Source: Nemertoderma westbladi
Lineage: Eukaryota > Animalia > Xenacoelomorpha
Direction: 5' to 3'
Assembly (NCBI GenBank): GCA_032718475.1
Contig: JAUCBJ010007108.1
Span: 1-64,000, forward strand
DNA length: 64,000 bases
The translations under genes were made by a program, and so were the position numbers. Under the pieces are notes generated by a model. It did not search any database. It saw only the letters and a list, made by a program, of their open reading frames with translations, and was not told the DNA's origin. Every line of letters begins with the position of its first letter. Positions within the stretch are counted from its first letter, which is position 1. Positions 14,129 to 42,788 of the stretch are shown piece by piece.

Positions 14129-14314
14129 CCGGTCTGTTCATCGTTATTAATGATAGGACTTCCGGTTACACTAACCAGGTTGACCAGGGCGATATTCTAA
14201 CCTCTGGTCGGCTTCACGGTAGCCGACAGCATGAATTTTGGCGTTTCACTGGTGGTTATTTCAGGATCGGTGCATAATGGCCTCTCATATCGGCATATTG
14301 TATGTGTTGTACGT

Positions 14315-16367
14315 TACCGGGTGGTCGCACTGAGTTCGGTATCTGGTTATACCGGGTGTTCGCACTCAGTTCGGTATCTGGTTGTACCGGGTGTTCGCAC
14401 TCAGTTCGGTATCTGGTTGTACCGGGTGTTCGCACTGAGTTCGGTATCTGGTTATACCGGGTGTTCGCACTCAGTTCGGTATCTGGTTGTACCGGGTGTT
14501 CGCACTCAGTTCGGTATCTGGTTGTACCGGGTGTTCGCACTCAGTTCGGTATCTGGTTGTACCGGGTGTTCGCACTCAGTTCGGTATCTGGTTGTACCGG
14601 ATGTTCGCACTCAGTTCGGTATCTGGTTGTACCGGGTGTTCGCACTCAGTTCGGTATCTGGTTGTACCGGGTGTTCGCACTCAGTTCGGTATCTGGTTGT
14701 ACCGGATGTTCGCACTCAGTTCGGTATCTGGTTGTACCGGGTGTTCGCACTCAGTTCGGTATCTGGTTGTACCGGGTGTTCGCACTCAGTTCGGTATCTG
14801 GTTGTACCGGGTGTTCGCACTCAGTTCGGTATCTGGTTGTACCGGGTGTTCGCACTCAGTTCGGTATCTGGTTGTACCGGGTGTTAGCACTCAGTTCGGT
14901 ATCTGGTTGTACCGGGTGTTCGCACTCAGTTCGGTATCTGGTTGTACCGGGTGTTCGCACTCAGTTCGGTATCTGGTTGTACCGGGTGTTCGCACTCAGT
15001 TCGGTATCTGGTTGTACCGGGTGTTCGCACTCATTTCGGTATCTGGTTGTACCGGGTGTTCGCACTCAGTTCGGTATCTGGTTGTACCGGGTGTTCGCAC
15101 TCAGTTCGGTATCTGGTTGTACCGGGTGTTCGCACTCAGTTCGGTATCTGGTTGTACCGGGTGTTCGCACTCAGTTCGGTATCTGGTTGTACCGGGTGTT
15201 CGCACTCAGTTCGGTATCTGGTTGTACCGGGTGTTCGCACTCAGTTCGGTATCTGGTTGTACCGGGTGTTCACACTCAGTTCGGTATCTGGTTGTACCGG
15301 ATGTTCGCACTCAGTTCGGTATCTGGTTGTACCGGGTGTTCGCACTCAGTTCGGTATCTGGTTGTACCGGGTGTTCGCACTCAGTTCGGTATCTGGTTGT
15401 ACCGGATGTTCGCACTCAGTTCGGTATCTGGTTGTACCGGGTGTTCGCACTCAGTTCGGTATCTGGTTGTACCGGGTGTTCGCACTCATTTCGGTATCTG
15501 GTTGTACCGGGTGTTCGCACTCAGTTCGGTATCTGGTTGTACCGGGTGTTCGCACTCAGTTCGGTATCTGGTTGTACCGGGTGTTCGCACTCAGTTCGGT
15601 ATCTGGTTGTACCGGGTGTTCGCACTCATTTCGGTATCTGGTTGTACCGGGTGTTCGCACTCAGTTCGGTATCTGGTTGTACCGGGTATTCGCACTCAGT
15701 TCGGTATCTGGTTGTACCGGGTGTTCGCACTCAGTTCGGTATCTGGTTGTACCGGGTGTTCGCACTCAGTTCGGTATCTGGTTGTACCGGGTGTTCGCAA
15801 TCAGTTCGGTATCTGGTTGTACCGGGTGTTCGCACTCAGTTCGGTATCTGGTTGTACCGGGTGTTCGCACTCAGTTCGGTATCTGGTTGTACCGGGTGTT
15901 CGCACTCATTTCGGTATCTGGTTGTACCGGGTGTTCGCACTCAGTTCGGTATCTGGTTGTACCGGGTGTTCGCATTAAGTTCGGTATCTGGTTGTACCGG
16001 GTGTTCGCACTCAGTTCGGTATCTGGTTGTACCGGGTGTTCGCACTCAGTTCGGTATCTGGTTGTACCAGGTGTTCGCACTCAGTTCGGTATCTGGTTGT
16101 ACCGGGTGTTCGCACTAAGTTCGGTATCTGGTTGTACCGGGTGTTCGCACTCAGTTCGGTATCTGGTTGTACCGGGTGTTCGCACTCATTTCGGTATCTG
16201 GTTGTACCGGGTGTTCGCACTCAGTTCGGTATCTGGTTGTACCGGGTGTTCGCACTCAGTTCGGTATCTGGTTGTACCGGGTGTTCGCACTCAGTTCGGT
16301 ATCTGGTTGTACCGGGTGTTCGCACTCAGTTCGGTATCTGGTTGTACCGGGTGTTCGCACTCAGTTC
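14315..16367. repeat. 35-bp tandem array, ~58 copies
   Basis: Unit CGCACTCAGTTCGGTATCTGGTTGTACCGGGTGTT, head to tail, occasional single substitutions, no spacers. Confidence 0.97.
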
Positions 16368-17820
16368 ACTTTACATCATTAGTTTACTCCATTGATATAA
16401 TATTTTTTTATTTACAGTGCGATGTATTTTATTAGGATGTCTCTGCTGTTATTTTTATATATTTTTTCTCACAGGTTAAAAAGGAGAAGGTTTGTTGTTG
16501 TTACCTTTACTTTCGGTTTGCACTTATATTTTCCAATATATTTTTGGTAATAATATATTTTGTGGCTTGGTTTATTAATTAGCTTGATTTTCACGATAAC
16601 CCATGTTCAGTTTATGTTATACAGCGAACTCACTTTCTCATATCACAATATTGGCATTTATAGTTCGGCCCGGTCGGCTGATTGTTCGTTCATTTGTTGG
16701 CTTACTGTACTATCTTCAGTTTGAATTAAACAAAATACATTAAATTCTATGAATTATTATATTATGTTGTTCTAAACCTAAACTGGAATATAAAGGCTCC
16801 AATATCTTGTTATTTTTTTATTTAATCATTGAAAGCATTCATCAATGAAGGTGCATTAGATATAAACTAGTTGGGCTCTTTACGCTTTCAGTATAATATA
16901 GTTTAATGGTAGTCCTTATATGCCTATAATTTGTATCAGGAAATTTTAACTTCTATTGATAATAATAATCGACTTATATTTCTTATATGAGAAAGGGAAA
17001 TGGATGAAAAGTTCCATTTCCGTTTTATGCCCTTTTTGTTTTGTGGTGGTAAACATTCTAGTAAAAAAAAACAATAAGAAAACGCAGCTCATAATGTCAA
17101 CAAAAATAAGCGGAAAAAGGTGTCATTGTGGTTTCATTGTTCTAAAAAATGCGGCCACAAACGCAGTAAAAATTCGCGGTCCTAAGCTGAAAATCACCGA
17201 AATTAATATATTTGTGCCAAACCCTATAATACGAAATGTTTAATTAGAAACTAAACGTTTCCACAGCGTCTGTGTACTTTATTGAGATTTATTCCTCGAA
17301 CTGTTTTTCTAACTTTTGTTATTCAAGGGCCCGAGTCTCTCATCGAATTATTTTGTCTACTTATAAAATGTGCCGCCAAGTTTTTAATAACAGAAAATAA
17401 ATTTTTAATGTTATGTTTGTTAATATATTATTTCCTTTCGTATTTCATTTTAATTCAATTATTTGTACAAGTACAAGATTACATGTTATGTTGGTTACCG
17501 TTTGTTTTATATTTTATTTATGTTAAAAGCGAATCGCAATATGTTCAATTAGTATAGAATGTTTGCTAGCTTTCTACATCTCTCTTTTTCTTGAAGCGGC
17601 AATTTTGAAACAGTTTATCGTATTCCAAATTTCTGCGATAATGGATATCCGTACTTATTCTGTATAGAAACTATAAATAGTTTAATTCAGCAGTATTTTA
17701 ATTTGCTTTTGTAATTGCATCACTGTTATGGATGTGCAGAGCAGAATATCGAGAACTAATCCGTGTATGATTAAAACAATCCCACATAAAAAGTCGGGAG
17801 GTGTGGGGAATCATGCCCTT

Positions 17821-21943: not shown

Positions 21944-22543
21944 CTATAATTGTAAAAAATATCCTGTCACTGCGAGAGATATGTTAGTTCTAGAACAGAT
22001 ATTGGTTTTCTATAACATTTTTTGTCAAGAAAAAAATAAAACTGGAGCGTATATAAATCCAGGGATCGTTATACCGATTGTAAAAATGTATTTCTTTTAG
22101 AGACTAATAATATAACACTAGGTAACATGATAATGAGGTTGATTTCTAACACTCCCATCCGACTCCCATCCGGACCCATCCGACTCCCATCCGGACACAA
22201 AGTAATTAGTTATATTTTATTTAATTATTTACATTCTATTTTAATTTAATTTAAATTAAATTTCAAATTTTTAAATCTTAATCACATTGCTTGGAATTTG
22301 AAACACATTTTTTATAAGATTTAAGATTTTTATAAGATTTTTAAAAAATTATCTTTTGCGAAATCGCACTCACTGATCGTGGCCATTCTTCACATTAGTC
22401 GTATTTTTTTTTCATATCAATAGAAAGCTTGCGTTGCAAGGATTTCAATTATGTAACAATGTCTGAATTTCGTTGAGAAACAGCTGAGCCTGAGATGTAT
22501 GCGTTCAAATTTGCGAGAATTATTGTTCACCCAAGGCCATTTA

Positions 22544-24147
22544 TTGGACGGATCCATCATGCTTGTCCTTATTTTTGGACGGATCCATCATGGATGTCCT
22601 TATTTTTGGACGGATCCATCATGGATGTCCTTATTTTTGGACGGATCCCTCATGGATGTCCTTATTTTTGGACGGATCCATCATGGATGTCCTTATTTTT
22701 GGACGGATCCCTCATGGATGTCCTTATTTTTGGACGGATCCATCATGGATGTTGGACGGATCCATCATGTATGTCCTTATTTTTGAACGGATCCATAATG
22801 GATGTCCTTATTTTTGGACGGATCCATCATGGATGTTGGACGGATCCATCATGGATGTCCTTATTTTTGGACGGAACCATCATGGATGTCCTTATCTTTG
22901 GACGGATCCATCATGGATGTCCTTATTTTTGGACGGATCCATCATGGATGTTAGACGGATCCATGATGGATGTCCGTATTTTTGGACGGATCCATCATTG
23001 ATGTTGGACGGATCCATCATGGATGTCCTTATTTTTGGACGGATCCATCATGGATGTTGTACGGATCCATCATGGATGTCCTCAGTTTTGGACGGATCCA
23101 TCATTGATTTTGGACGGATCCATCATGGATGTCCTTATTTTTGGACGGATCCATCATGGATGTTGGACGGATCCATGATGGATGTCCGTATTTTTGGACG
23201 GATCCATCATTGATGTTGGACGGATACATCATGGATGTCTTTATTTTTAGAAGGATCCATCATGGATGTTGGACGGATCCATCATGGATGTCTTTATTTT
23301 TGGACGGATCCACCATGGATGTTGGACGGATCCATCATGGATGTCCTTATTTTTGGACGTATCCATCATGGATGTTGGACGGATACATCATGGATGTCCT
23401 TAGTTTTGGACGGATCCATCATGGATGTTGGACGGATCCACCATGGATGTCCTTATTTTTGGACGGATCCATCATGGATGTTGGACGGATCCATCATGGA
23501 TGTCCTTATTTTTAGACGGATCCATCATGGATGTTGGACGGATCCATGATGGATGTCCTTATTTTTGGACGGATCCATCATGGATGTCCTTAGTTTTGGA
23601 CGGATCCATCATGGATGTTGGACGGATCCATCATGGATGTTGGACGGATCCATCATGGATGTTGGACGGATCCATCATGGATGTTGGACGGATCCATGAT
23701 GGATGTCCTTATTTTTGGACGGATCCATCATGGATGTTGGACGGATCCATGATGGATGTCCTTATTTTTGGACGGATCCATGATGGATGTCCTTATTTTT
23801 GGACGGATCCATCATGGATGTTGTACGGATCCATCATGGATGTCCTTATTTTGGACGGATCCATCATGGATGTTGGACGGATCCATGATGGATGTCCTTA
23901 TTTTTGGACGGATCTATCATGGATGTTGGACGGATCCATGATGGATGTCCTTATTTTTGGACGCATCCATCATGGATGTTGGACGGATCTATGATGGATG
24001 TCCTTATTTTTGGACGGATCCATGACGGATGTCCTTATTTTTGGACGGATCCATCATGGATGTTGGACGGATCCATCATGGATGTCCTTAGTTTTGGACG
24101 GATCCATCATGGATGTCCTTATTTTTGGACGCATCCATCATGGATGT
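22544..24147. repeat. 31-bp/22-bp mixed-unit palindromic tandem array (resumes at 42789-42884)
   Basis: Units TTTTTGGACGGATCCATCATGGATGTCCTTA and TTGGACGGATCCATCATGGATG; resumes in register after the right LTR. Confidence 0.95.
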
Positions 24148-25317
24148 TGTTTGCGCTTTTAAGACCTTTGACAGTTTAACCTGCCAAAATTAGAATGTCT
24201 TTTGGATGATAGATAGTCTTTAGCCTATGACGAGTATTTGATACACTACATTAGCTGAAGCCAGTCTATGCGCAATCATTCACCCGCTGGATATACCCGG
24301 GAGACTGAATTCGGAAGCTTAATGATTGATGGTGTAAGCCTACTGTATTATTCGACTGATCGTAATATATAATCTCTGACAAATATTATTCACTTTCGGG
24401 AAATATTAACAGTTCCTTTAGGACGTGGCGCTCTAAATATGTAAACAGAGTTATGACTTAAACTAGACACAACGAAAAGGCTATAGATTCACGTATATGG
24501 CGCATTCTTTAGGAGATGCTTTGTTATCAGTTACACTCATACACAATGCTGCACAATACTGCACACTAATCTGCCGACCTTCACTAAATTTGGTCACGTA
24601 TAAAGAGAGCAACATACAATTTATGTCGGGCATATGAAATAGCATTAGATTCACTTCAAACCACCGTCGCAATCGTTTATCTGTAACCGGTCTCTCTAAC
24701 CTTTAGTATATCAAGAAGATTGGGATGTCGGACTATTGATCAGTATTCCGATATAATATTTCATCAACAAATATAACGAATAACCGACAGTAAAAGCAGT
24801 AAAGTTAAGGTATAAATGATTATTAAGTGAGTGAATTAACTCGGTAACTCGTTTGCATTGGTATGGTTAGGTTAGATAACAGATATACGTTCTATAATTA
24901 AGCCTACTAATGTAAGACTAAAGACTGAAACACGGAGGTGCCAAAAGCCGGTGTTCTTAGGCTCTGGGCAAAAACATAACACTGAATTCCTGAGTTTCTG
25001 TATCCACCTCCAACACAGAGACAAAAAACGCTCTGATTGGTCGACCGAACAACGAGAGAACAAAGAAACAAAGAAATGTCGACGTGGCAATATCAGCTGT
25101 TAGATCATCATGGTAGCGACACTGTTTTCAAGAGTATCGAGCTTATTGCGTCCCGAAATTGCGGATTATGTCCTCTAAAGTACAAATACAGAAGAAATGG
25201 CTTTTATGTCCTCTAAAACACCAGTACAGTAAGGACACGGCCTTTTTATGCCCAGTAAACCAACTACAGAGTACTTTACGGGGAAAATAACCGGCTAATT
25301 ACGCAAAAGCTTTTACA
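24148..25317 (-). repeat. 3' LTR (1170 bp)
   Basis: TGTTTGCGC...GCTTTTACA, direct repeat of 41609-42788 with a few substitutions and small indels. Confidence 0.95.
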
Positions 25318-25395
25318 CCGCTCCCAGAAAATGGGATTTAAGTCTATAAAATATAACAAATCACAGTTTCTAAAATATAAAGATACTCTAAACAG

Positions 25396-28300
25396 TTAGT
25401 CTTTCTTACGCGGACGGCGTTTACGCAGTTTTTTGAGGCTAGTAAGAGTCCTTTTCTCTTTGGGGCGAGCCACTTTACTAGGAGGGCTGTAACTCCTGGG
25501 TGAAGGGTGCAATACAATTGCATCAGAAGGTTTCGGATTGCGATCGGTGTATCCGCCGGTCGAGGTACCTGGTTGATCGATATCAACTTCCGTGGAGCGA
25601 GGTCTAACAGCCTTTAGGGCGCGCCTCAGGACAGCAGCTCCTACGGGTCCTTGACGGGTTGTCTGGGCAATGGCGGTAGGTGGACCGTGAGTGGTGAGAA
25701 ACTTCCTTGGTTTAATAGTTCTTTCCAACTCGCGTTCTCGGGCTCGATATTCGTAGGGCCGTCGAGATACTTCCTGTAACTCAGGGTGCGAGTTGATAAA
25801 TAAATCGCCATACTCAGGGTCTTGACGGATATAATTGATCAAATGGTATGAAGTAATATCGTTAGGATTGACGTTCCTAAGGTATCTTCTAACAAATTTA
25901 GTGGAAATACACTCACCAACACGCTTCATTAGCTCGTAACTCGGTATGCGTGTTTTTTGTTCCACAGACGCTAATAAATAAGGATGGAACGCGTAAACTC
26001 CCTCGTAAGAGCGTCCAGGGTAGTATCGATGACGGGACTCACAGTGTAAATCCGCGTTAGCTTCCCAAGCTCGGATGTAGCGCAGGGTAATCATTTCATC
26101 TACGCTCTCTAAATCGTGATTAAAGGGGCAATTATAACTGGCATGTCCTTTAAGTTGACAGTGGTGGCATTGAGTCATAAATTGGGGGCAGACTGCAAAA
26201 ATATGAGAGTTATTAAGTCTGCAATACGCACAATATATCTCCATCATTGGTTGTTCGTGGAAATAGGAACAGGGTACGTCTGAGTCCATAGGAGTGAAAT
26301 GGTCTCTCGATGCGCATAATCGACAACGTTTTCGAGAAACATAGTTAGCGTGTCGATAATCGTATGCGGTGAGACATTGTGGACCTTGATACCACTCTAA
26401 GACGTAGTCGTTATCGCTGCTCCGGGGCGCTGTAGGCTGAATCGCTTCAGCTTCTAAGCATATTGGTTCATCTTCCAATTGCATAGCTGAGGTAGGTGCG
26501 GCTGTCTCCGCAAGCGGACCCACTGTCTGAACTTCGACGACAGAATAACCCGTGGGTATTCGGGGTCTTTGTATAACAGATGAGTGCAAGTTCTGTATAC
26601 AAACGTCCTGAAAAAGGGCAAATCCCGCGCTGTTTAGCTTCTCCGCCGCTGAGTCTCTCAGGCTGAGTTTGGTCAGAGCGCGGTCCTTGAACTGACTATC
26701 AACGTTACGGAACGGAGTCAGAAAGCGCCTGAAACATTCAAAGCGGATGAATTTATTGTGTTCATCTAACTTGGCGAGTTTGGTTCCAAGTATTAAGGGA
26801 TGGGCGCGTATGGTACGACTGCACACATCGGCTAGCCAACCCGCAAGTGCTGCGTTTTCAAAGATCGTGTATATAGCTAAGGAGGGACGAAGTGGAACAC
26901 TCATAAAGCTATACACGGCTCCAGGTGCGGTCAATGGTCCATCAAAGTATAAACGAGAATAATGATCTCCGTATACTTGTTGGTAATTTATAGGATTTCC
27001 AACCTTGAAATTACTTTGAAAGGCAAGATGTCCGATGGAGGTTCGTTGTACTTTGGTAATTCCGCTGGGTGTATTGGCATACATAGTGCGGAAGAAACCT
27101 CGGCCTTCTGCCCAAGGAGCAATCAGCTGAGTATCAACGAAGGGGTATAGAATGTTCTCCATATTCCGAAAGTCGTTCTGTAGGTCTCCATAAACAGCTG
27201 AGCCGATTTTAAGGATTCCTTCGTTAAACAGCATCTCGAGCACGGGTTGGGGTAACATCGATCCATCGATACCCATGGCCGGCTTGCGCTCGGTGTCGGT
27301 GACGTAACGCTGCGCGAGTTCAAATTGTCCATGTCGGAGTTTCTTTTGTGTCTCAGTAAGAGTTTCAAAAGAATAATCAATAACGTCGGAACACGCTCGA
27401 GTAAATACGTGGGTAGAACCAGCGAGTCCTCGTATGTGTATCATCCGCGTAGTTCCAAGTTCTCCAACCGGAACGCTACCTTCGTTATCGTAAGTGACAA
27501 CTCCATACATCTCGATAACGTTAAGAGTTTCGTTCCACTCTTTAGTGGCGTTTTCGAGTGTCATTCCCACAGGATGCCACAAGGTAGCACATTCGCTAGC
27601 ATTATGCAGGTCTTTATACTTTAAATATTGTGTGGTATATGTTTCCACATCTCCATATCGTTGTATTCTTTCCTCCTCGAATAACACATCAAGATTCCAG
27701 TGCACTAAACGAGTTTTGATGAATCCATCAAGATTATACGGAGGTATTGTTTCTTTCTCTATTCTGGAAACATTATATGGTTTTCGAAATGAGTTTACTT
27801 TAACTAACTGATCCAGATGTTTCTGCAGTTGTTCGAGTTCGACAAGATCGAGAGGATTTATTAACGGTAGAAACTTCGGACTATGTGTAGGATCTTCCGG
27901 TTTTACCATGTAATATTGTTTTAGATTGACGTAATAAGGGTGATCTTTGATCCCATAAAACGAGTCCGGTAAAGGTCTAGCGCGTATGTTTACATCGTGT
28001 ACCATGCGACGGACAAGATCTGCTCTATTGTCCGGAGGTTCAACGAGTATACCATCGACACGAGCGGATTCGATGGGCGGACGCTGCAACAGAGGAGCGT
28101 CGGCGATAAGATCGCGAGATCTTAGGTTGATATCAACCGGTTGGGGTTGTGCCGTCGCAAAAAGTTTGTCTCCGAAATGGGGAACCATCGAGGGATGAAG
28201 AATGGTTTTAGAGTAGAGATCCGTCATAAGGATTTGCGCTTCGGGTTGAGCTAAAGCCGCTTCTTCTCTCTCATCCAGTTCTATATGTCTCTCCTCGAGC

Positions 28301-29640
28301 TGATTCTCCTCCGCTTGTTGTTGTAGACGCTCATCTAGAAACTCTTGTAAAGAGTAGGTTCATCCACGTTCGATGTCCTCCTCGAGATTTTGTATTTCTC
28401 TATCGAACTGGGGTAAAGCTAATTCCTTCACCGCTTGGACTTGTTGCTGCAATTTACGCTTCTCCAAACAATCGTACGTTCCCTTTCCGATTTTCTGCCG
28501 AATAGCGTCTAATGCGTTTCGTACGACGCTCTCTTCGACTTCCGTAACGGGTTGGATAGAGGTGAAGCCGGGACGGTTGTATGGGTTAAACGGCGATATG
28601 AGATGACCACGTCCCAATCCAGCTAGGTAGGGTTGGCGAATGTCTCGTGAGCCTACTACCGGAGTGCCACCGATCAACTGTTCGGGTAACACTAGATCTT
28701 TGAACAGTGAGTACAGTTCGGGAGGATCCGTGATACTATTAGGGTCAAGAGTTTGAGGTCTAACTGAGGAATGCGGAGGTCTGACCGAGTATTCCGGAAC
28801 TCTGATCATCGGTTTGTTCAAGGATCGCTTGAGTCGAGCGACCGCAGGGGACACGTCGAACAGGTTTCGCTCGAAACTCCCGTAAGTATATCGTGTAAAA
28901 CTGTGTTTAGCGCAACGTATCCGCGGATGTTTATGTCTTTCCGTTTGCTGATTGGGTCTAGGGCATTCGTCGCAGTAATACCAAAGACGCATGTCCTGCA
29001 GAGGAAACGCGGGTGATCGTTCTCCAGTTTTACAATATTCCTCCATCTGTTCGAAGCTATCCGGGACGACAGGTAGCGGTCGATCGGCGGTAAGATACAT
29101 CATAGTGAAATAGAGTCGTTTGAGTTCTATCATAGGATCATGATGTATACCTTGAGGATATCGAGTTTCGAGATTTTGTTGACTGGCAATATTGAGGTAT
29201 GTTTCTCTCAAGAATTCCAGATAATCGTTGAAGTCGTTGCGTTTATCCGGCTCTTCAACGTCTTCTCTCTCGAGTCTGTTTCGAATAGAGTTCTCGTGTT
29301 CTATTCTTGGCTTATCGTTCCGATTCCGCTGGGTATGATATTTAAATAAAACCATTTCCCTTTCGGTATCCACATCGTCCGTGTCGTGTAAATCGATAGG
29401 ATGGCCGGTAGTTAAGAAGTCCATATACGTACCATTACGATGCGTATAACGAGCGGTGAACTTTCTATAGTCCAATTCACGCGTAAGTTGCTCCGGGGAC
29501 ATCGGCGGTTCGATATAACGACCATCATCCTCCGTAGTAGTTGGACCAGCGTCGCCGTGTATCAAGCTATCGACAAACGCTTGTAAAGGTAGAGTATATC
29601 GCTCCCTGATACCAAGATCATCTTCTATCAACTCAGTCAT
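25396..29640 (-). CDS. Accessory ORF of the BEL element (~1414 codons, one in-frame TGA at 28362-28360): unknown N-terminal region, DEDDy-like 3'-5' exonuclease, CCHC zinc knuckles, basic tail
   Basis: ORFs 29640-28360 and 28227-25396 are in the same frame with 44 open codons between them; motifs VVTYDNEG, ILKIGSAVYGDL, FVDTQ, PLRPSLAIYTIFE; CAYC-x5-H-x4-CP and CHHC-x4-H-x4-CP; C-terminal KKLRKRRPRKK. Confidence 0.8.
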
Positions 29641-31359
29641 ATCTGCTATGAGTTTATCAATATTATAATGAGTTTATATATATATTAGGCTAGCGGGCGT
29701 CGCTGCCTACCCCTCTTTTGCCCCCGGACAGTGTAAGATCCTCAGCGCCGATGTACCGTCGTCGCTGTGCTTTCGCCAACGATGTAGCTACACAACGACA
29801 ACGATAACCGGCACAAGTCACTTCACTGTCCGTCCCAAAGGCTTAGATGTACTGCAGGTTCTTCTTGGAGAGTTAGGGTTACTTTCACAATTGCGACTCG
29901 CTACTGTAAACACACCTTAGTAGTAACATTCACCTACAAACGCACAAATTCAACACAACTGCAACAAACTGCACACATTCGGGCCATTTGTCCGTTAGTC
30001 AGTACCTTCCAGAATGTCACTGTATTTATTATATATCCTTGGATACTAGCGGTGTGCTATTTATTCCCTATGCTATTCAATGGGGCATGCCTTCTATTGT
30101 TCTTTTAACTCACTTCTAATTCTAGCGTGGTTGTTGCCATGGTGACATTATGGAAAGCTAGCGGTAGAATTAGGGTAATTCTCATGCATACAGATCTGGG
30201 ATGCTATTTAATAGTAATTCTTTAATGGTCAATATCCCCTTTATACATGATTCTATGAATTTTATCGGCTATTGACTATACATTAGAGATTCTCGCACAC
30301 AAATACACTTAATAGAGTGAATCTCCGCTCCCATGATCTATTAATTAATGGAATTTTGGGAATGTTATAAATTGTATAAAATGACAATTTATTAAATTCA
30401 TTGAAATATCTGAATTTAAATTTATTCCCGTAAATTTTATTATTTAATGTTAAATAGACACAATTTTATTCCAGAACGTGTCTGGGGACTGGGATCCTTG
30501 ATTCTAGGAATTTTGTCCTTTTAAGAGTATCGGTAAGTGCTACGATATCTTAATCGACTAGAATTTTAAAGGATCTGATATTTGACAGATTTTTGTAAAT
30601 ATTAATAATTAATATTTAGGATGGGCACCAGTTTATTCCAGAACTTGTCTGGGGACGTTAACCATTGATTCTAGAAATTTGTCTTTCAAGTATATCGGTG
30701 GGTGCCGCGATATCTTAATCGACTAGAATTACAGATGGTCAAAGGGTTTAACAGATTTATTTTGCGTTATACGCTACTGTTAAAGGGACATCACGCTACT
30801 ATATGTATTATTTAATATACGGTATGAGAGCAATATCGCACGAAGCAATGTCAGTGTGAAGAGGCAAGTCGTTTCCAAGGTCTACCCAGAGCTTGGTTTA
30901 GCCGAGACACGAGGATCTGAACTTTGCATTCCTAATACTCTGCCTACCAATAATACTTGAATATAGTAGTGGCTTTATTGTACTTTAATAAGTACGAAGA
31001 TTTCATCTTACTGTAGTCACGTATTGATAATGTAATACGGGCAGTAAGGAAAGAGAAAAAGAATTATTTCTCGCCGTCGCACTAAATATATAATATACGT
31101 AATTAAATAATAAACGCGAATATATATTGCACTAATCTACTAAATAATCTCTAAAATACCATACTACTAAATAAAATTAAATAAAACGATTAAAATAAAA
31201 TTACATAATAATACATACATAAATATAAAAATAAAACAAATACAAATATAAAGTAATATGGTCACACACCCACTCCAGCCGTTGTTAAGTTGGGGAGTCC
31301 CTAGATGTTTGTTGGATTAGGGAGGTGGTCGTGGGAAGAGTATCTTGTCTCCCATAGTT

Positions 31360-33045
31360 TCAGGAGAGTTCTCTGTCTCTTTCCAGTAAACATAAACGTC
31401 CCACTGGGCGATTGAGCTGCTGCGTCTCGAAGACAATTCCCGGTTTCTTGAAGTTACGTCGCATGACGACGAGTTCTACCGATCGCACCAAACCGTCATC
31501 CGAGATGTGCGTCTCGATTATACGACCTGTCTGCCACCGCTTACGTGGAAGATCCACATCCACAATAAGCACCATGTCTCCAGCGCTGACGTTTTCTTGC
31601 TGCGCAAACCACTTAGTTCGAAGTTGTAGCGTGGGCAGATAATGTTTTTCGAAATGGTCAGCGAAACGACGGGATAACAACTGCATGAGTTGCCAAGTTT
31701 GTAGACAGTATTCGTCTCCGTCTGTGATTTCCGATTGTGGGAGCATGGCTACAGGTTTCTTCAGTAGGAAGTGCGCGGGTGTTAGCGCTTCCAGGGAATC
31801 GGGACTCGATGAGACTGGCATAAGCGGTCTCTCGTTGAGATAGGCGGCGATTTCTTCCATTAACGTCCGCAAAAGTTCGTCGGTGAGATAAGCGCGGCAA
31901 GGCACTATAAAATGAAATGCTGTCTTCACACTTCTTATTAATCTCTCCCAACTTCCTCCCCACCAAGGGGCGTCGGCGGCGTTGAAGGTCCAACTAGACG
32001 CTGTTACTCGTAGTTGGTCGTCCACCTGTCTTTGGTTCCAATCTTTGACGTAAGCTTTGATTTCATTGTTGGCACCAATGAAGTTTGTTCCCTTATCAGA
32101 TCTCATCGTGTTACTAGTGCCAAAGCGAGCGATCTGTCGTCGTAAGCTTAATAGAAAGCTGTTGGTAGATAAATCGTTCACCATATCGAGATGGATGGCT
32201 CTACAAGTCATACAAACAAAGATTACACACCATCTCTTGACTATAGTCCTAGCACGATATACTTCAATAGGGCCAAATAAATCCACACCGGTATTAGTAA
32301 AGGGTGGTTCATAAAAGCTTACTCATTCCCTAGGTAATTCTGCCTCTCGCTGTGTTAAAGGCCTACTGAATGCTTTCCTACAGGGTATACAGTTCCTAAG
32401 AACTTGGTTCAGAGCTCTACGGGGTTTATAAAAATAATAGCGAGTTCGAATTTCGCTAAGAACTCGTTCTCTACCAGCATGATAAAGCTTACTGTGAACA
32501 TCTACAATCATCTTGACTTGTATTTCAAGATTTCTAATGAGTATGGGGAACTTAGTATCAAAGGATAATGGGGCATTCGTTAACCTTCCTCCAACACGTA
32601 TCAACCCATCTATCATTGTGCTAGAGAAACGATCCCTTAAGCGCATCTGTGGATTTCTCAACAACAGGAAATACTTATCGGAATCTTCATAGCATTGTAA
32701 GAGTCTCAGCATCTGTTTGTTGGTTTCTTCATGCTCCTGATAACTGATCTTCTCCTTCAGAAACCTGTCGGGTATCTTATATGGGGGAAGATCTTTAATA
32801 ACATGGACCTGCACTGATGTGATTGGAGCGGTATCACCCTTTGTTTTCATCCCAGAGTAGTGATGGTGAAAACATCTCTTTAAATATGTAACGGCCTTAC
32901 AAAGCCGATTCCAGGAACTGTAGTGATGCATCGCTCTCTGCAGAAGAGGTGAGAGTCCTTGCGAGACGTCTGGTATGCCAGATTTCCAATCTTTATCACG
33001 GATTTCCACAATGGGTTTATTTGTGGCTGTGGGTTTCTGATCCAA
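31360..33045 (-). pseudogene. BEL integrase region (HHCC zinc finger, DDE core, DUF5641-like C-terminus), in-frame TGA at 32325-32323
   Basis: HSKLYHAG...CIPC; LPRE*VSFYEPPFTNTGVDLFGP; SDKGTNF; APWWGGSWERLIRSVK; LTPAHFL. Confidence 0.92.
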
Positions 33046-33080
33046 AGCGTCGTCTCCGGAAGTATGTAGTACAGACAGAT

Positions 33081-36000
33081 CTACTGTGGGTTTGAATAAC
33101 TTCGATTTACTCGCCTGAGTTTTAGGCTTGACTTTGCCTGTCTAATTTCTGCTGTAGTAAGATGAGGAGGCCATTCTTCTTCTTCTTTGTAGAGGAAGTC
33201 GGGTCCACCTAACCAGTCTGGAGTATCTACCAGTTCTTGTGGAGTTGCTCCCCTGGAAGCGATGTCTGCTGGATTAATCGTTCCGGGGCAATGTCTCCAT
33301 TGATCCATCGTCGTGCGACTGAGTATAATAGCTACTCTGTTGGTAACGAAGACACTGAACTGACAGACTTCATTGGTTATATACTCCAACACGAGTAAAG
33401 CGTCGGTCCAATAGACAGTTTTCTCCAGGGGATAGTCTATCTGTTCTGTTACATTCCGGCCGATGGCTGTAGCGTATAGAGCCGCTTTTAACTCCGCTCG
33501 AGGAACTTTCAACTTGTTGTTTATCAATGCCTTAGAGGTAACCAAGGCGACTTTGATTCCGTCCGGAGTTTCCACCCTTAGGTAGGCTACTATACCGATT
33601 CCCATATCGCTGGCGTCTCCAAACACATGGAGTTGATATGAATACGTAGGGAGAACATGACCAAAATATGAACGGGAAATTATAAAGTTTTCGATGGCTG
33701 GTAGAGAATCTTCCCATTTCATCCACTTCTTTAATAATTCTCCCTTAAGTGGATCGTCCCATGAGTGGTTTTCAAGCCACATTTGTTGTACTAAACTCCG
33801 AGCAATCAATATAACTGGGCTAATAAATCCCAATGGATCGAAATAAGTGCTCAGGATACTTAAACAAATCCGTTTAGTCCGAACTGGATTATCTCGCTGT
33901 TTTAATTGGAAAAACAGGATATCTCTTTCTGTGTCCCATTTCAAACCAAGGGTCTTAGTTTCTGGGAGATCATCCTTTATTAGATCTAGGTCTTTTGTTC
34001 CTCGATCTTCTACCGGGATCGACTCCAGAAACTCACGGGAGTTGCTAGTGAATTTAGTTAATCGAAATCCTCCTTTCTTTAAGCATTCTACCGTTCCTTT
34101 AGCGACCTCAATGGCTTCTTCGACTGATGGAAGGGACTTCAGATTATCGTCCATGTAGATGTCTCGTTTGATATTGTCGATCACTTCTTTAGAGAAGGCG
34201 CCTCGGTTGTCATCCGCAGTGGTGCGCACCACGGAACAGGCGTTTGAAGGGCTCGAGATTATACCAAAGGCTTGGATGGTCATCCAGTACTCAACAGGTT
34301 TCTTATTGAGGTCTCCTTCAGGCCACCACAAAAATCGTAGGCTATCTCGATCCCTATCCAGCGCTTTGACTTGTAAGAACATGCCTTCTATATCTGAGGC
34401 GAAAGCAATGGAGTATTGTCTTAATCTTAATAGTATTCCCAACAAGGATTGGAGTAAGTTGGGTCCGGGTAACAATTCAGAATTAAGAGATTGACCCATA
34501 TAAAGGGCGGAACCGTCAAACACCACTCGTACTTCATGGGGTTTACCGGGTTTGGGAATGTAATGGTGAGTTAAGTAATACGTTCTCTCAGTTATAGGGG
34601 TTTCTTCCGGTACTAGCTCCGCATATCCCTTGCTAATAAACTTCTTCAACTGTGTTTGATACATTTCTTTAGCTGAAGAATTTGCCGTAAGGCGTCGATG
34701 TAGTTGAGCAATTCTTTTCTCTGCCAAAGGTCTGTTGTTAATGAACTTTGGTTCTCGCTTTCGGAAAGGAAGACCGATCTCATATCTACCTTGATCTTTA
34801 AGAAAACGAGTAGTTGTCGCTTGGATCTGCTTGGCTCTTTCTTCCTCCACTGATAGGGCCTTATCGTAGGAGTTGGGCTCTACAACCTCTTGAGTAAAGA
34901 ATCTTACGGCGTGTTCATCCCGAGTCTTGGCATTATAACGTTCAATGACGTCATTAAGCTCGTCGTTATAGTCGTCTCGCTCGGATGGGAGAAGTAGTTG
35001 GCATAAGTTCACTTGATTTTGCCAAGTCTCGCTTTCCTTAAGGAGATCGATGGCATTCTCCTCATCGAAGAGTTGATGTATATCGTCGTTGTCTGAGGAG
35101 TATGGAGTTCCCTCAGTTGGATCGTCGAACTCACTGTTCTCAACTTCCCATTCTCGCACTTGATATACCTGATCTTTAGGTAATCTTTCCATGAGAGTTC
35201 TACGGGAAGGGCCAGTAAAGTACCAACCTACTCTAGTTCTTACCGCATAGGTTTGTAGTGGCTGCGGTTGAGCAGGCCGTTTCTCCAATGTCTCGAGCGC
35301 CTCATGCGCGTTTTGGCCGATGAGTATTTGTACTCCAGGATAATCAGTCTGGAATCGAGGTATCTTAAGATGTTGGATGCTCTCATCCTCGTCCCAATTA
35401 TAAAGGTCTGCTTGAGTAGTAGCGAAGTTCTTTATAGCCACCATTTTCACTGACCTTATACTATGTTCTCCTAGTTCGTCCTGGGGGGTGGACAACGCAC
35501 CTACATAATAATCCGCTGTTACTGTAGATTTCCAAACCTGCATAATTCCTGACATGTTTAGCTTAGTTCGGAACTTGGGTTGTCCAGCGAATATGTCTTC
35601 GGCTAGCTCTTTGTCGATGAATGTTCCTGTACTACCGGAGTCAAGGAGGGCGTTCACTAGATAACTCCTTTTTGGTCCGTGGACCCTTACCTGTACCACA
35701 GGAAATTCTCTAATCCCTACATTGGAAGTTGGCGCTTTCCAAGATGGTTGTCGATCAGAAGTAGTTAGAGCGAGGTCAATGTCTGTATCTTTTTCATAAA
35801 TGAGTGCTCGATACACTGTGGTATTTATCATGTAACAGGATTCGTTTTCGTCGGAGAACTCGTCCGTATAGAATCCTTCCATCTCAGATTGATCAGTGTC
35901 GTTCACATCACTGAATTGGACATGTAGTTCGGAATCACTTACCTGACTCGGACTATTTCGCTCAAATTCAGTGTGCAACAAGATATGATGTTTCGCACCG

Positions 36001-37589
36001 CACTTGGCACATCTTGTGTCAGAGTAACAGGTTCGCCGTTGGTGTCCATGTCTGAGGCAATTATAACACAACCGCTTATCCCACATGACTTCACGTCTCT
36101 CAGTTAATGATTTCTTTAGAAATTCATCACACATATTTAAGCGATGGGTCCCATCACATAGCGCACATTTCGGTTTGATGTTACTTACCTTACTCTGAGT
36201 AATATTGTGTACACTTGTCTTTTCTTCTGGCTTTCTCACCTGAATTCTCTTGGGAGACGTAGGAGGAGTTTTTCTTACCTGTTCTCTCCTGTCATTGGTT
36301 CGAGACTTGAATTTACTTACCTGATCTTTAGGCATTTTATTGACATAATAAGATCTGTCAGTGTCTTTCCCGCTATCCTCTCCTTGAGAAGTCTGGCTTT
36401 CGCCGTCGTCTGTATAACACACTGGTGTTACCTTTCTCCTAGAGACGGGTTTTTCACTTACCTTGTTTTCCGGTGTCTTCTCTCTGGACAGTTTCAGGAG
36501 CTGTAATTTCACTTCTCCATCTAGGAATGACATGAGATCAGCCATGGTAGGGTCTCGTCGTTGTTGTTCCATCATATATAACACTTTCTTATCCCAGCGT
36601 GTACCTACTCCACCCTTCGGTAAAGTAGAAGCCACTGCTCTAATAACCATAGCACTCTGATACTCATGAGACTTACCTAGCCAATCTAATTGTCTGCAGA
36701 TCTCCTGAATCTCATCGGAAAACTCTATAATTCCGCTGCTAATAAACTTTCGGGGCGCTACTAACTTTGCATACAAATACCCAGCTATGTTATTCCTATT
36801 ACCATACCTGATGTTTAGTGTATCCCAAACTTGTCTTAATCCGTCTGGATGTCCAATAAACTTTAACGCCATTAACTTGGGAGATCCTTCCAAGCACTCG
36901 ATGAGGAATCTAAGTTTCTCTCCATTAGAAAGTACAGAGTTCTGTATGTTATCTTTGTAATATTCATTAAAAGGTAACCATTTCATCTCATCTCCATTGA
37001 ACTTGACGATCTCTCCCACCTTTACCGCTTGCCGGGCTTCGGTTCTAGCCATTTGACGCGTAAAACTTTCTTGGGCCATCGTGTTATTTAATATCGAGTT
37101 ATCGGTATATAAATTTCTCGGATTATGATCCGTTCTATAGGGAATATCATTATCAACAGGTCTATAATTACCCTTAATAGGGTTCACTATAGGAGTTTCT
37201 ACCTCGCTAGCAGTATAGATGCGTGTAGGCTCCACACCTTGCGCATGAGATACTTCAGACCTAACAGGTTGACACATTGTTACAGGGGGTGGTGATATAC
37301 CCCTTTGTGTATTTACTAATTTATCGCGTTCTAGCGCGATACTTTGCTGCACTTCTTGCAACTCTAACCTACTTTCCCTTACTGTGCCCTTGAATTGCTG
37401 AACAGTCTCCTGCATCTGTCCGAGCAGGAGATCCATCCCCCGTCGTCTCTCATCCACCCATTCGACCGCCGAAGCGGGATTCGCCAACGTTGTAGCGGGA
37501 GGACGAGGGACAACGGGCGACAAATCTTGAATATTTCGCTGTTGTGCTGTTCTGCTGGGCACAGGTAGCTTGGACTGTGCAATGGGAAT
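33081..37589 (-). CDS. BEL gag-pol core: DUF1759-like gag, three zinc knuckles, aspartic protease, RT, RNase H; frameshifted relative to both neighbours
   Basis: KFNGDEMKW..LSNGEKLRFL; CALC/CYNC/CAKC knuckles; ALLDSGS; RVVFDGS, DIEGMFLQ, YMDD; LHVFGDAS, PRAEL, WTDA, NPADIASRG. Confidence 0.95.
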   Translation of the reverse strand: MPIAQSKLPVPSRTAQQRNIQDLSPVVPRPPATTLANPASAVEWVDERRRGMDLLLGQMQETVQQFKGTVRESRLELQEVQQSIALERDKLVNTQRGISPPPVTMCQPVRSEVSHAQGVEPTRIYTASEVETPIVNPIKGNYRPVDNDIPYRTDHNPRNLYTDNSILNNTMAQESFTRQMARTEARQAVKVGEIVKFNGDEMKWLPFNEYYKDNIQNSVLSNGEKLRFLIECLEGSPKLMALKFIGHPDGLRQVWDTLNIRYGNRNNIAGYLYAKLVAPRKFISSGIIEFSDEIQEICRQLDWLGKSHEYQSAMVIRAVASTLPKGGVGTRWDKKVLYMMEQQRRDPTMADLMSFLDGEVKLQLLKLSREKTPENKVSEKPVSRRKVTPVCYTDDGESQTSQGEDSGKDTDRSYYVNKMPKDQVSKFKSRTNDRREQVRKTPPTSPKRIQVRKPEEKTSVHNITQSKVSNIKPKCALCDGTHRLNMCDEFLKKSLTERREVMWDKRLCYNCLRHGHQRRTCYSDTRCAKCGAKHHILLHTEFERNSPSQVSDSELHVQFSDVNDTDQSEMEGFYTDEFSDENESCYMINTTVYRALIYEKDTDIDLALTTSDRQPSWKAPTSNVGIREFPVVQVRVHGPKRSYLVNALLDSGSTGTFIDKELAEDIFAGQPKFRTKLNMSGIMQVWKSTVTADYYVGALSTPQDELGEHSIRSVKMVAIKNFATTQADLYNWDEDESIQHLKIPRFQTDYPGVQILIGQNAHEALETLEKRPAQPQPLQTYAVRTRVGWYFTGPSRRTLMERLPKDQVYQVREWEVENSEFDDPTEGTPYSSDNDDIHQLFDEENAIDLLKESETWQNQVNLCQLLLPSERDDYNDELNDVIERYNAKTRDEHAVRFFTQEVVEPNSYDKALSVEEERAKQIQATTTRFLKDQGRYEIGLPFRKREPKFINNRPLAEKRIAQLHRRLTANSSAKEMYQTQLKKFISKGYAELVPEETPITERTYYLTHHYIPKPGKPHEVRVVFDGSALYMGQSLNSELLPGPNLLQSLLGILLRLRQYSIAFASDIEGMFLQVKALDRDRDSLRFLWWPEGDLNKKPVEYWMTIQAFGIISSPSNACSVVRTTADDNRGAFSKEVIDNIKRDIYMDDNLKSLPSVEEAIEVAKGTVECLKKGGFRLTKFTSNSREFLESIPVEDRGTKDLDLIKDDLPETKTLGLKWDTERDILFFQLKQRDNPVRTKRICLSILSTYFDPLGFISPVILIARSLVQQMWLENHSWDDPLKGELLKKWMKWEDSLPAIENFIISRSYFGHVLPTYSYQLHVFGDASDMGIGIVAYLRVETPDGIKVALVTSKALINNKLKVPRAELKAALYATAIGRNVTEQIDYPLEKTVYWTDALLVLEYITNEVCQFSVFVTNRVAIILSRTTMDQWRHCPGTINPADIASRGATPQELVDTPDWLGGPDFLYKEEEEWPPHLTTAEIRQAKSSLKLRRVNRSYSNPQ

Positions 37590-39427
37590 TTAGAGGTAGG
37601 TTCAGGGAGTACAGGTGTCTCTACCACCGAAAGGGTGGCTTCGGGAACAGGCCTAATTATTTCAGGCTCATCTACTATAGTAGGGAGTCTTTCTATTGTA
37701 ATTATTTGGTCTGTGGGTTCTGTACTACCTACGTTGGTGTTATTTAGTTGCCTTCTAACAGCTGGGGGCAAATCAGGCAATTTCTGACGGTGGGCCATTC
37801 TTTTACGTCTGCTTAGGCGAGATCGATTTCCTCCGCCTTCAGTGTCGGTGGTATCGCCTTCCTCAGATGATGTATAACCTTGTCTTTTGGGAGTAGATCG
37901 ATTCATCATCTGCATATTACTAGCTGTTAACTGTTTATTAAAGTTGTCTTGTCTCTCTTGAAGATTTTCCAACTCTAGTTGGGTTGTCTCTTCAGATGCC
38001 CTCCGTTCTGCTTCTGCCACTGCTATTTTTCTTTCCGCTTCGGCCGCCTTTCTTTCCGCTTCTGCTGCTGCCACTTTTCTTTCCGCTTCGGCCGCCTTTC
38101 TTTCGGCTTCTACTGCTGCAGCTGCCGCTTTTGCCTCTGCCGCTGCCACTTTTGCCTCTGCCGCTGCCTCTGCCGCTTTTCTATCCACTTCTGCCGCTTT
38201 TCGTTCCGCTTCTGCCGCTGCCACTGCCGCTGCTGCTGTCTTTCTATCTTCTATACGTTTTTTCTTTACTTGTTCTTCTTGAACCTTAGCGATGCGGATG
38301 CTTTCATTGAATTTAGCTTGGTTCGCAGCTAACCTATCCACATCGATTGTGTCCAACACACTCTGGGCTCCTTCACTATTAGGGCTAAGTCCATCTAACC
38401 TTCTCCTCAACTCTTCATCACCTAAAAAACGTTGATAGTCTGACAGATAGATGTCAATGGCATCCCTCTTATGCGGCTTCTCTGCCGTCGCTTCACTTTC
38501 CACTTGGGAAAAAGTAGCGTCTGTTGATTCTCCATGGGTTGAGCGCTCCTCCAGCTGAGCTTTCCACTGAGCCGTTCCTTGAACCTGGAGACTCACCCGT
38601 TGAAACCAAGTCTTTACGGCAACTTGCAACGACGTGTCTTGTCTTCTTTTAGAAGCCTCCTCAAAGGCCGATAAGATTAGCCTAATTCGCAGAATTCTTT
38701 CTCTAACTTGATAAAGCAGTTGTCCCTGCTCTTGAGGTCCTTGAGGTTGTTGAAACAGTTGTTCTTTTACTCGCTCCATAGAGTTGAAGAATCCCTGGGC
38801 GTATCCGGCTGCGGACCTCTTCCATACAGCTGGATCGATGGTTTCCTTGGCTACTCCCATCCGGTGTATGTCTTCCCAGGCAGCTTCTGATAAATCAAAC
38901 GGGAGTCCGGGTCCGGGGAAGTTCCATTGCGACTCGACCATAGACTTCAGTTCTTCCCTTGTGTATCCCTCATAACTATCTTTAGTTGATCGCTTACTTC
39001 TCGCCCAATCGATCTGGTGTTCTTCCACCGCAATCAATAACCTAGTGAGTACGGCTGCAGGAAGGATGAGAAGGGGATCCGAATAAACTGCATCCGTCAT
39101 CCTTGCTTCGCGCTTGGGTGTCAGCTCTACAGTATCCTCACTACTGGAGCTGTCGGGCCGCTGAGAAATAAGTTCTTGGCTCGCGGGTTGTTGCTGTTCC
39201 GCTGCTTCTTGGTCCCGCTTGACCTGGGCTCGAGTGCCTATGATAGACCTATGATGTTGGACCAGCCTCGGTTCTGTTATTACTACTGGAGGGATGACTT
39301 TCCTAACAGTGGGAGGTGAACTGAACTTAGGTGTAGACGGTTCTACACCCTTATCTGAGTCGCAGATAGTTACATCTAATAAACTGTCTGACATGTTCTG
39401 CTTAGTATCAGACATGTTTGTTTGCAC
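37379..39427 (-). CDS. Long N-terminal gag extension of the BEL element with Ala/Glu/Lys coiled-coil repeats
   Basis: 682-codon ORF overlapping the gag-pol frame (which opens at 37589); AAEAERK repeats at ~38010-38240. Confidence 0.75.
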   Translation of the reverse strand: MQTNMSDTKQNMSDSLLDVTICDSDKGVEPSTPKFSSPPTVRKVIPPVVITEPRLVQHHRSIIGTRAQVKRDQEAAEQQQPASQELISQRPDSSSSEDTVELTPKREARMTDAVYSDPLLILPAAVLTRLLIAVEEHQIDWARSKRSTKDSYEGYTREELKSMVESQWNFPGPGLPFDLSEAAWEDIHRMGVAKETIDPAVWKRSAAGYAQGFFNSMERVKEQLFQQPQGPQEQGQLLYQVRERILRIRLILSAFEEASKRRQDTSLQVAVKTWFQRVSLQVQGTAQWKAQLEERSTHGESTDATFSQVESEATAEKPHKRDAIDIYLSDYQRFLGDEELRRRLDGLSPNSEGAQSVLDTIDVDRLAANQAKFNESIRIAKVQEEQVKKKRIEDRKTAAAAVAAAEAERKAAEVDRKAAEAAAEAKVAAAEAKAAAAAVEAERKAAEAERKVAAAEAERKAAEAERKIAVAEAERRASEETTQLELENLQERQDNFNKQLTASNMQMMNRSTPKRQGYTSSEEGDTTDTEGGGNRSRLSRRKRMAHRQKLPDLPPAVRRQLNNTNVGSTEPTDQIITIERLPTIVDEPEIIRPVPEATLSVVETPVLPEPTSKFPLHSPSYLCPAEQHNSEIFKICRPLSLVLPLQRWRIPLRRSNGWMRDDGGWISCSDRCRRLFSNSRAQ

Positions 39428-41597: not shown

Positions 41598-41608
41598 ATA
41601 TCTGTTAT
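41598..41608 (-). promoter_or_regulatory. Putative primer-binding site, non-tRNA, complementary to LTR 42355-42345
   Basis: Minus-strand ATAACAGATAT directly abuts the 5' LTR end, with no TGG at the junction; exact reverse complement ATATCTGTTAT lies in the LTR on the same strand. Confidence 0.6.
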
Positions 41609-42788
41609 TGTTTGCGCTTTTAAGACCTTTGACAGTTTAACCTGCCAAAATTAGAATGTCTTTTGGATGATAGATAGTCTTTAGCCTATGACGAGTATTT
41701 GATACACTACATTAGCCGAAGCCAGTCTATGCGCAATCATTCACCCGCTGGATATACCCGGGAGACTGAATTCGGAAGCTTAATGATTGATGGTGTAAGC
41801 CTACTGTATTATTCGACTGATCGTAATATATAATCTCTGACAAATATTATTCACTTTCGGGAAATATTAACAGTTCCTTTAGGACGTGGCGCTCTAAATA
41901 TGTAAACAGAGTTATGACTTAAACTAGACACAACGAAAAGGCTATAGATTCACGTATATGGCGCATTCTTTAGGAGATGCTTTGTTATCAGTTACACTCA
42001 TACACAATGCTGCACAATACTGCACACTAATCTGCCGACCTTCACTAAATTTGGTCACGTATAAAGAGAGCAACATACAATTTATGTTGGGCATATGAAA
42101 TAGCATTAGATTCACTTCAAACCACTTAACATAGGTCGCAATCGTTTATCTGTAACCGGTCTCTCTAACCTTTAGTATATCAAGAAGATTGGGATGTCGG
42201 ACTATTGATCAGTATTCCGATATAATATTTCATCAACAAATATAACGAATAACCGACAGTAAAAGCAGTAAAGTTAAGGTATAAATGATTATTAAGTGAG
42301 TGAATTAACTCGGTAACTCGTTTGCATTGGTATGGTTAGGTTAGATAACAGATATACGTTCTATAATTAAGCCTACTAATGTAAGACTAAAGACTGAAAC
42401 ACGGAGGTGCCAAAAGCCGGTGTTCTTAGGCTCTGGGCAAAAACATAACACTGAATTCCTGAGTTTCTGTATCCACCTCCAACACAGAGACAAAAAACGC
42501 TCTGATTGGTCGACCGAACAACGAGAGAACAAAGAAACAAAGAAATGTCGACATGGCAATATCAGCTGTTAGCCGTCGTCATGGTAGCGACACTGTTTTC
42601 AAGAGTATCGAGCTTATTGCGTCCCGAAATTGCGGATTATGTCCTCTAAAGTACAAATACAGAAGAAATGGCTTTTATGTCCTCTAAAACACCAGTACAG
42701 TAAGGACACGGCCTTTTTATGCCCAGTAAACCAACTACAGAGTACTTTACGGGGAAAATAACCGGCTAATTACGCAAAAGCTTTTACA
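41609..42788 (-). repeat. 5' LTR (1180 bp)
   Basis: Direct repeat of 24148-25317; minus-strand CCAAT at ~42505 and Inr-like TCAGT at ~42395. Confidence 0.95.

Follow-up and report, generated by a model that had tools for sequence, protein, structure and literature searches.

A conserved accessory gene of a Nemertoderma westbladi BEL/Pao retrotransposon with a predicted DEDDy-type exonuclease domain

Results

We analyzed a stretch of 64,000 nucleotides from Nemertoderma westbladi (GenBank assembly GCA_032718475.1, contig JAUCBJ010007108.1, positions 1 to 64,000 of the forward strand; hereafter the window). Its minus strand contains an 18,641-bp retrotransposon of the BEL/Pao type, with boundaries taken from the pair of long terminal repeats (LTRs) in the window. 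Besides gag and pol, the element carries a third open reading frame (ORF), here called ORF3, which was under purifying selection in its nuclease region and belongs, as an accessory gene, to a BEL/Pao family with many copies. ORF3 is predicted to encode a DEDDy-type 3'-5' exonuclease followed by zinc knuckles. Our favored reading, to which we give a probability of roughly 40%, is that this protein binds RNA and acts outside reverse transcription, blunting host small-RNA silencing or RNA surveillance.

An earlier note, made from the sequence without database searches, had described a same-strand ORF of ~1414 codons between pol and the 3' LTR, broken by one TGA. This description was correct: ORF3 comprises 1,414 codons in one frame, from an ATG at 29640 to a TAA at 25396, interrupted once, by a TGA at 28360-28362. 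Encoded on the strand of gag-pol, it starts 1,719 nt past the pol stop and ends 78 nt before the 3' LTR. Its features are given below; residue numbers count on the last 987-codon stretch (25396..28359), and P0001 and P0002 are two distant proteins described later.

Features of ORF3
28360..29640 (-): first part of ORF3, 426 codons, ending at the copy-specific TGA
~28974 (-): CxxC...HxH...CxxH cluster, a single one, within the first 426 codons
25396..28359 (-): second part of ORF3, last 987 codons
26800..27564 (-): predicted DEDDy-type 3'-5' exonuclease domain, aa 266-520
27501-27478 (-): VVTYDNEG, ExoI-like
27489-27481 (-): candidate site residues D291 and E293, assigned by spacing
27216-27184 (-): ILKIGSAVYGD, ExoII-like
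27186-27184 (-): candidate site residue D392, profile-supported
27141-27127 (-): FVDTQ
26895-26857 (-): PLRPSLAIYTIFE, ExoIII-like
26871-26857 (-): candidate site residues Y497 and E501, assigned by spacing and P0001
25972..26325 (-): three Cys/His knuckles and a conserved tail of ~50 residues, common to P0001 and present twice in P0002
26325 (-): CxxC-x4-H, first knuckle
26232 (-): knuckle C-x2-C-x5-H-x4-C, one residue longer than canonical
26169 (-): canonical knuckle
25399..25434 (-): basic C-terminal tail, possible nuclear localization signal

All exonuclease motifs named in the earlier note were present, VVTYDNEG exactly where it had been placed, although ILKIGSAVYGD lay ~19 nt from the figure given. 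The two CCHC knuckles proposed there were also found, but only the one at 26169 is canonical, that at 26232 being one residue longer. The first 426 residues gave no family or structure match. As the best 19-residue hydropathy windows reached just 0.82 and 1.19, ORF3 has no membrane segment; a retroviral-type envelope, which is marked by a signal peptide and a membrane anchor, was rejected, as had been anticipated.

Conservation among sister copies

Contigs from four sequencing runs of four studies were compared with the window (X1, X3, X4 and X5; one run is under another organism label). X1 may be the source sample, and contig depth was not taken as copy number. The ORF3 stretch was present in five of the seven runs listed, spanning four studies, and the element was fully covered (30/30 bins) in each of the four runs. 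Divergent contigs on the 721-bp nuclease stretch numbered 2,768, 936, 28 and 12 in the four runs, and a one-off host capture was rejected on these counts.

Variable sites in the nuclease region were picked by support. Among the best 40 of 124, 34 were at third codon positions and 34 were synonymous (expected share 0.23-0.29; p ~1e-11), and pN/pS, with changes scored singly, was ~0.07. None of the six non-synonymous sites in this set fell in the five candidate catalytic codons. Because 34/40 sites were synonymous among sister copies, ORF3 is selected cargo rather than a one-off capture, in agreement with the proposal of the earlier note.

At the ORF3 TGA, every contig listed differed from the window (33, 19, 7 and 4 contigs in the four runs). 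The stop is thus private to this copy, and programmed read-through was rejected for this reason. The 12 best-supported of 423 indels all fell outside the ORFs. The continuous cover suggests that ORF3 is linked to pol in other copies as well, although no listed contig spans both.

Two further observations concern variation within ORF3. All 10 indel rows of the nuclease stretch clustered at 27012-27016 (~aa 449), between ExoII and ExoIII, and probably represent one variable loop in a subfamily. Some contigs skipped 2.7-2.8 kb within ORF3 (25530-29273), indicating that deleted copies exist.

Homology of the predicted exonuclease domain

The DEDDy assignment holds as a prediction by chained homology rather than by structure, with ExoII supported statistically and ExoI and ExoIII placed by spacing. 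A HMMER search of 1.84 billion proteins returned only two matches. The better one, P0001 (E 3.3e-5, residues 351-514 of ORF3), is an unnamed database protein in which an exonuclease is followed by three knuckles and a conserved tail, in the same order as in ORF3. The two proteins are ~29% identical; all four acidic positions are acidic in both, and both share the same Glu with a Tyr four residues before it. A hidden Markov model (HMM) built from 14 RNase D/PolA-type domains of bacteria scored P0001 at 27.6 bits and the window protein at 7.2 bits, values attained by 0/300 shuffles, and other segments of ORF3 scored below zero or not at all.

Using hhalign, the pair of window protein and P0001 matched RNase D/PolA exonucleases at 90.8% (E 1.2e-6; 0/60 shuffles) over 53 columns around ExoII. 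Profile homology to the DEDDy family was thus obtained over the ExoII region, with D392 aligned within the match. The window protein alone gave E 0.003 (0/60 shuffles). Searched against four bacterial replicons selected for carrying PF01612-type genes, the pair profile produced a single match, within a PF01612 domain (E 0.066). In Atlas, PF01612 was found in 30/30 matches among named clusters (best 0.92, one named WRN-like) and in 24/30 matches without filtering, where two unnamed clusters ranked first. P0001 had a Pfam exonuclease match at E 0.038, and human EXD2 was among three weak PDB matches (E 2.1). These profile and Atlas matches bear out the previously suggested combination of a DEDDy-type domain of the RNase D/WRN/EXD branch with zinc knuckles, and support the WRN/EXD2 branch as the nearest relative.

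The window protein alone had no significant match in PDB sequences or in word-seeded homologue searches, and no homologue was found in viral contigs or prokaryote genomes. A further homologue search recovered P0001 alone, and in a metagenome search only the contig of P0002 matched. Weak tblastn matches in plasmids and phages were dismissed as chance-like, since one (H4) fits no exonuclease family and another (H3) runs across annotated genes that are unrelated.

The motifs align with RNase D in order and local spacing, with no gaps, which gives D291, E293, D392, Y497 and E501 as the site; the EXD2 site is D108, E110, D171, Y242 and D246 (PMC6648332, available text). The ExoI pair D291/E293 fits this spacing, with a block as good in 131/500 shuffles. 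ExoIII reads YxxxE instead of YxxxD in both the window and P0001, the substitution that the earlier note had pointed out, and the domain is therefore classed as DEDDy-like rather than canonical. Judged by spacing, these residues may constitute a complete two-metal site. From this homology, a DnaQ-type exonuclease fold appears very likely, and nuclease activity likely.

The knuckle module is common to ORF3 and both distant proteins. The P0001 knuckles resemble nucleocapsid knuckles (E 1e-4). P0002 carries the module twice, behind an N-terminal domain with weak fold resemblance (3.6 bits) in which the ExoI Glu is absent. P0002 lies at L001 79-2025, on a 3.7-kb contig that has no pol ORF.

The element and its primer site

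Pfam families on the element were DUF1759, Peptidase_A17 (E 4e-36), Integrase_H2C2 and DUF5641, and the motifs run from knuckles through protease, YMDD and RNase H to integrase. Because of these families, among them Pao-specific ones, and this motif order, with gag knuckles followed by protease, reverse transcriptase, RNase H and integrase, the element is assigned to the BEL/Pao LTR retrotransposons. It also has an LTR pair with TG...CA ends and a 5-bp target duplication (4/5 positions matching). The LTRs are 99.6% identical, differing by 5 mismatches and 3 gaps.

Features of the element and its insertion site
41609..42788 (-): 5' LTR, 1,180 bp, TG...CA ends
42345..42355 (-): LTR-internal complement of the primer-binding position (24876-24886 in the 3' LTR), candidate self-primer
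41598..41608 (-): primer-binding position, 11 nt directly past the 5' LTR, without a TGG start, complement of the LTR-internal site
37379..39415 (-): N-terminal gag-side ORF with coiled-coil-like low-complexity repeats; its frame differs from that of the next ORF in this copy
33081..37589 (-): gag-pol with DUF1759, three Cys/His knuckles, protease, YMDD reverse transcriptase motif and Peptidase_A17 (Pao RNase H region)
31360..33141 (-): integrase with Integrase_H2C2 and DUF5641; a frame change and a TGA (32323-32325) disrupt it in this copy
29641..31359 (-): spacer between pol and ORF3, 1.7 kb, AT-rich
25318..25325 (-): purine-rich tract abutting the 3' LTR
24148..25317 (-): 3' LTR, 1,170 bp
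22539..24147 (no strand): 22/31/53-bp satellite, insertion site of the element; resumes at 42789-42885

Besides the ORF3 TGA, gag-pol of this copy has two frame changes and one stop, and this copy is therefore dead. The 5' leader (39416-41608) is very long at ~2.2 kb and holds 290-bp and 121-bp tandem duplications, and the 3' spacer contains a 136-bp duplication. The 8-mer of the purine tract at 25325 (-) recurs at 30332 in the spacer between pol and ORF3, and a purine run followed by TG lies just past the pol stop (~31270). The second purine tract in the spacer is possibly a central tract or a relic of an older LTR. The only TATATAAA in the whole element lies at 29680-29673 (-), 40 nt 5' of the ORF3 ATG, and may hint at an internal promoter for separate ORF3 expression.

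The self-complementary primer site mentioned in the earlier note is real: the primer-binding position is an exact 11-nt complement of a site in the LTR. Such a complement occurred by chance in 66 of 20,000 simulated LTRs. The partner site lies 747 nt upstream. No tRNA match to the primer-binding position was seen by eye, and the 64-kb window contains no tRNA gene. In a fold of the 827-nt leader, the probability of 5'-end pairing of the primer site was ~0.02. As the LTR contains neither AATAAA nor ATTAAA, the 3' end of the RNA cannot be placed at the 11-nt site. By its 11-nt complementarity to its own LTR, as in Tf1, the element is a candidate self-primed BEL/Pao. Self-priming is reported or predicted for the Tf1/sushi, Tcn1 and TAR lineages (PMC6317226, available text).

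Other features of the window

A NIPBL/Nipped-B cohesin loader occupies 8075-14128 (+) as one unbroken frame of ~2,000 codons. Animal NIPBL genes usually carry many introns, and this frame is either a retrocopy or an intron-poor gene. Directly past its stop lies a 35-bp satellite (14175-16400; ~59 copies at 97% identity). A broken ISXO2-like transposase (IS1595/Merlin-type) was found at 51576-52501 (+) (PF12762, E 1.7e-8). At 54702-57789 (-), three ORFs of one broken gene carry HEEADT and GCDT motifs, which we take to recall XPG/FEN1-like nucleases; they had no significant Pfam match.

Discussion

ORF3 is best read as a selected accessory gene whose product would act on RNA outside reverse transcription. 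It would be expressed separately from a promoter in the spacer, the knuckles would bind RNA, and the basic tail would carry the protein into the nucleus; the exonuclease might 3'-trim or destroy the small-RNA precursors or guides that the host directs at the element. According to the available text of PMC5408684, Gypsy and Penelope-like elements, which replicate differently, have both taken up DEDDy ORFs, suggesting a task that all retroelements share and not one bound to a single priming chemistry. A role outside reverse transcription is favored by this occurrence of the same cargo in differently replicating elements, and also by the layout of ORF3 itself, which stands apart from gag-pol, has a TATA-like box in front of it, and encodes putative RNA-binding knuckles and a basic tail.

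Several observations weigh against this reading. The selection figures are made up of 40 of the 124 variable sites. The Pfam scan of the window protein gave no exonuclease match, and the Atlas matches, a single source, share 157-160 of 256 features, fewer than the 170 typical for true family members. The ExoI and ExoIII blocks were equaled in 131/500 and 52/500 shuffles, respectively, the window-P0001 ExoI pair was equaled by 922/2,000 shuffles, and MAFFT aligned a different acidic stretch under ExoI. AlphaFold models from one and from two sequences both had a pLDDT of 30. The fourth acid is Glu, in contrast to Asp246 of EXD2 (PMC6648332, available text) and the Asp of RNase D. In addition, the rotifer DEDDy ORFs, in what is available of PMC5408684, do not clearly correlate with copy number and themselves have small-RNA coverage, and the strong conservation of ORF3 is unlike the rapid change expected in a host arms race.

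Processing of the element's own RNA ends by the nuclease seems unlikely to us. In its strongest form, the 11-nt site of the 3' LTR pairs with the primer position and the enzyme would trim the unpaired 3' tail back to the duplex, leaving a primer. The exact complement does begin at the first base past the LTR, with the low chance frequency given above (66/20,000); RNase D-type enzymes trim 3' ends of structured RNA, and 3'-end processing is proposed in the rotifer paper (PMC5408684, available text). The likeness of the P0001 knuckles to nucleocapsid knuckles would also fit loading on genomic RNA. However, 11 nt is the length in Tf1, which makes its self-primer by RNase H alone (PMC7175516, available text), the RNA end cannot be placed at the 11-nt site in an LTR lacking AATAAA and ATTAAA, the 5'-end pairing is improbable (~0.02), and primers are mentioned 0 times in the available text of PMC5408684. 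The suggestion of the earlier note that nuclease and primer site form one system thus keeps a real 11-nt site but is weakly supported, given that RNase H suffices in Tf1. That the family makes its primer with its own exonuclease, the RNA 3' end folding onto the 11-nt site, the knuckles loading the D-E-D-E nuclease and the tail being chewed to the duplex, is quite improbable. If true, reverse transcription could begin by a third route besides tRNA and an RNase H cut, and the repeated recruitment of DEDDy ORFs by retroelements would be explained. We also doubt a reading in which nuclease activity is weak or lost and the domain instead serves as a decoy or scaffold that binds RNA, in the manner of EXD1 or Maelstrom in piRNA pathways. 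The replacement of the last Asp by Glu would suit such a role, as would the ~35 residues by which each of the two inter-motif stretches (ExoI-ExoII and ExoII-ExoIII) exceeds that of EXD2, and PMC5408684 (available text) cites DEDD derivatives without activity that function in piRNA biogenesis. The weak N-terminal fold of P0002, without the ExoI Glu, shows that decay occurs in this protein family. On the other hand, the window protein and P0001, ~29% identical, both retain an acidic residue at all four positions, including the shared Glu with a Tyr four residues ahead of it, and the candidate codons had no amino-acid change among the listed sites.

An enzyme packaged to edit cDNA 3' ends, by proofreading or strand-transfer clean-up, would allow an unusually long genome, which suits the 18,641 bp of this element, the DEDDy ORFs carried by Terminons, which reach 40 kb (PMC6431247, available text), and the use of DNA as substrate by WRN/EXD2-type enzymes (PMC6648332, available text). 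We regard it as very unlikely, as ORF3 is not fused to pol and stands behind a 1.7-kb spacer, and as Juno and Vesta families of rotifers occur both with and without the DEDDy ORF (PMC5408684, available text). There is only a slim chance that the motifs are a chance resemblance in a domain of another fold: the missing significant Pfam, PDB and homologue matches of the window protein alone and the pLDDT of 30 in both AlphaFold runs would be in line with it, but PF01612 is reached by four separate lines of evidence, and the motifs follow the order and local spacing of RNase D ungapped.

To our knowledge, few animal retrotransposon-encoded suppressors of small-RNA silencing exist, and a selected, compact nuclease domain would for this reason be a direct handle on silencing suppression. 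The D-E-D-E site and the new zinc module define a protein family nearly absent from databases.

Comparison with known systems

The closest precedent, correctly named in the earlier note for rotifer Gypsy elements, is the DEDDy ORF3 found in Juno and Vesta (Ty3/Gypsy) of bdelloid rotifers, which has a DEED motif, was acquired on at least two occasions and is shared with Athena/Terminon Penelope-like elements (PMC5408684, repeated in PMC6431247 and PMC6338049; available text of each). Both 3'-end processing and a silencing role have been raised for it (PMC5408684, same text). The nematode precedent also named there was not found, "nematode" having 0 occurrences in the available text of PMC5408684. 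In the open literature, including the available text of PMC2774666, PMC6681497 and PMC11599104, we found no BEL/Pao DEDDy cargo, although subscription journals, Repbase entries or supplements could hold one.

ORF3 resembles the Juno, Vesta and Athena proteins in being a DEDDy-type exonuclease encoded by a separate ORF in the env position, without a membrane segment and with an altered acidic motif; in both cases the function is a proposal only (PMC5408684, PMC6431247, available text). The carriers differ, being Gypsy or Penelope-like in rotifers and BEL/Pao here, as does the motif, DEED in the rotifer report and D-E-D-E in ORF3. Compared by description, two rotifer families have a Cys-His-Cys motif (PMC5408684, available text), whereas ORF3 has 1,414 codons, a basic end and a module of three knuckles plus conserved tail. 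With the WRN/EXD2-like exonucleases (PF01612), ORF3 shares the ExoII context LP..v..lL.d..ilKvG...D, the DTQ and the order PL-x6-Y-x3-acid; unlike them, it has a last-position Glu, two insertions, a zinc-knuckle module and a mobile context, and it scores below the Pfam cut-off. In P0001 the exonuclease, which has the ExoIII Glu, precedes the three knuckles and conserved tail, and P0002 has the knuckle module twice, but both proteins are ~650 aa long and lack the long N-terminal half. The primer site is like those of Tf1/sushi (PMC7175516, PMC6317226, available text) in its 11-nt complementarity to the element's own LTR and in having no tRNA match by eye. Those elements, however, are Gypsy or Copia and use RNase H, while the candidate site described here has its partner 747 nt upstream.

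DEDDy ORF3 cargo in retroelements is thus already known; what is new is the carrier superfamily, the D-E-D-E domain leaning toward WRN/EXD2, the zinc module and the long N-terminal half of 650 residues. BEL/Pao joins the Gypsy and Penelope-like elements of rotifers as a carrier of DEDDy cargo, and repeated recruitment by unrelated retroelements points to a general function. Clear purifying selection among copies, which the available text of PMC5408684 does not show for the rotifer DEDDy ORFs, is seen here in the nuclease region of ORF3.

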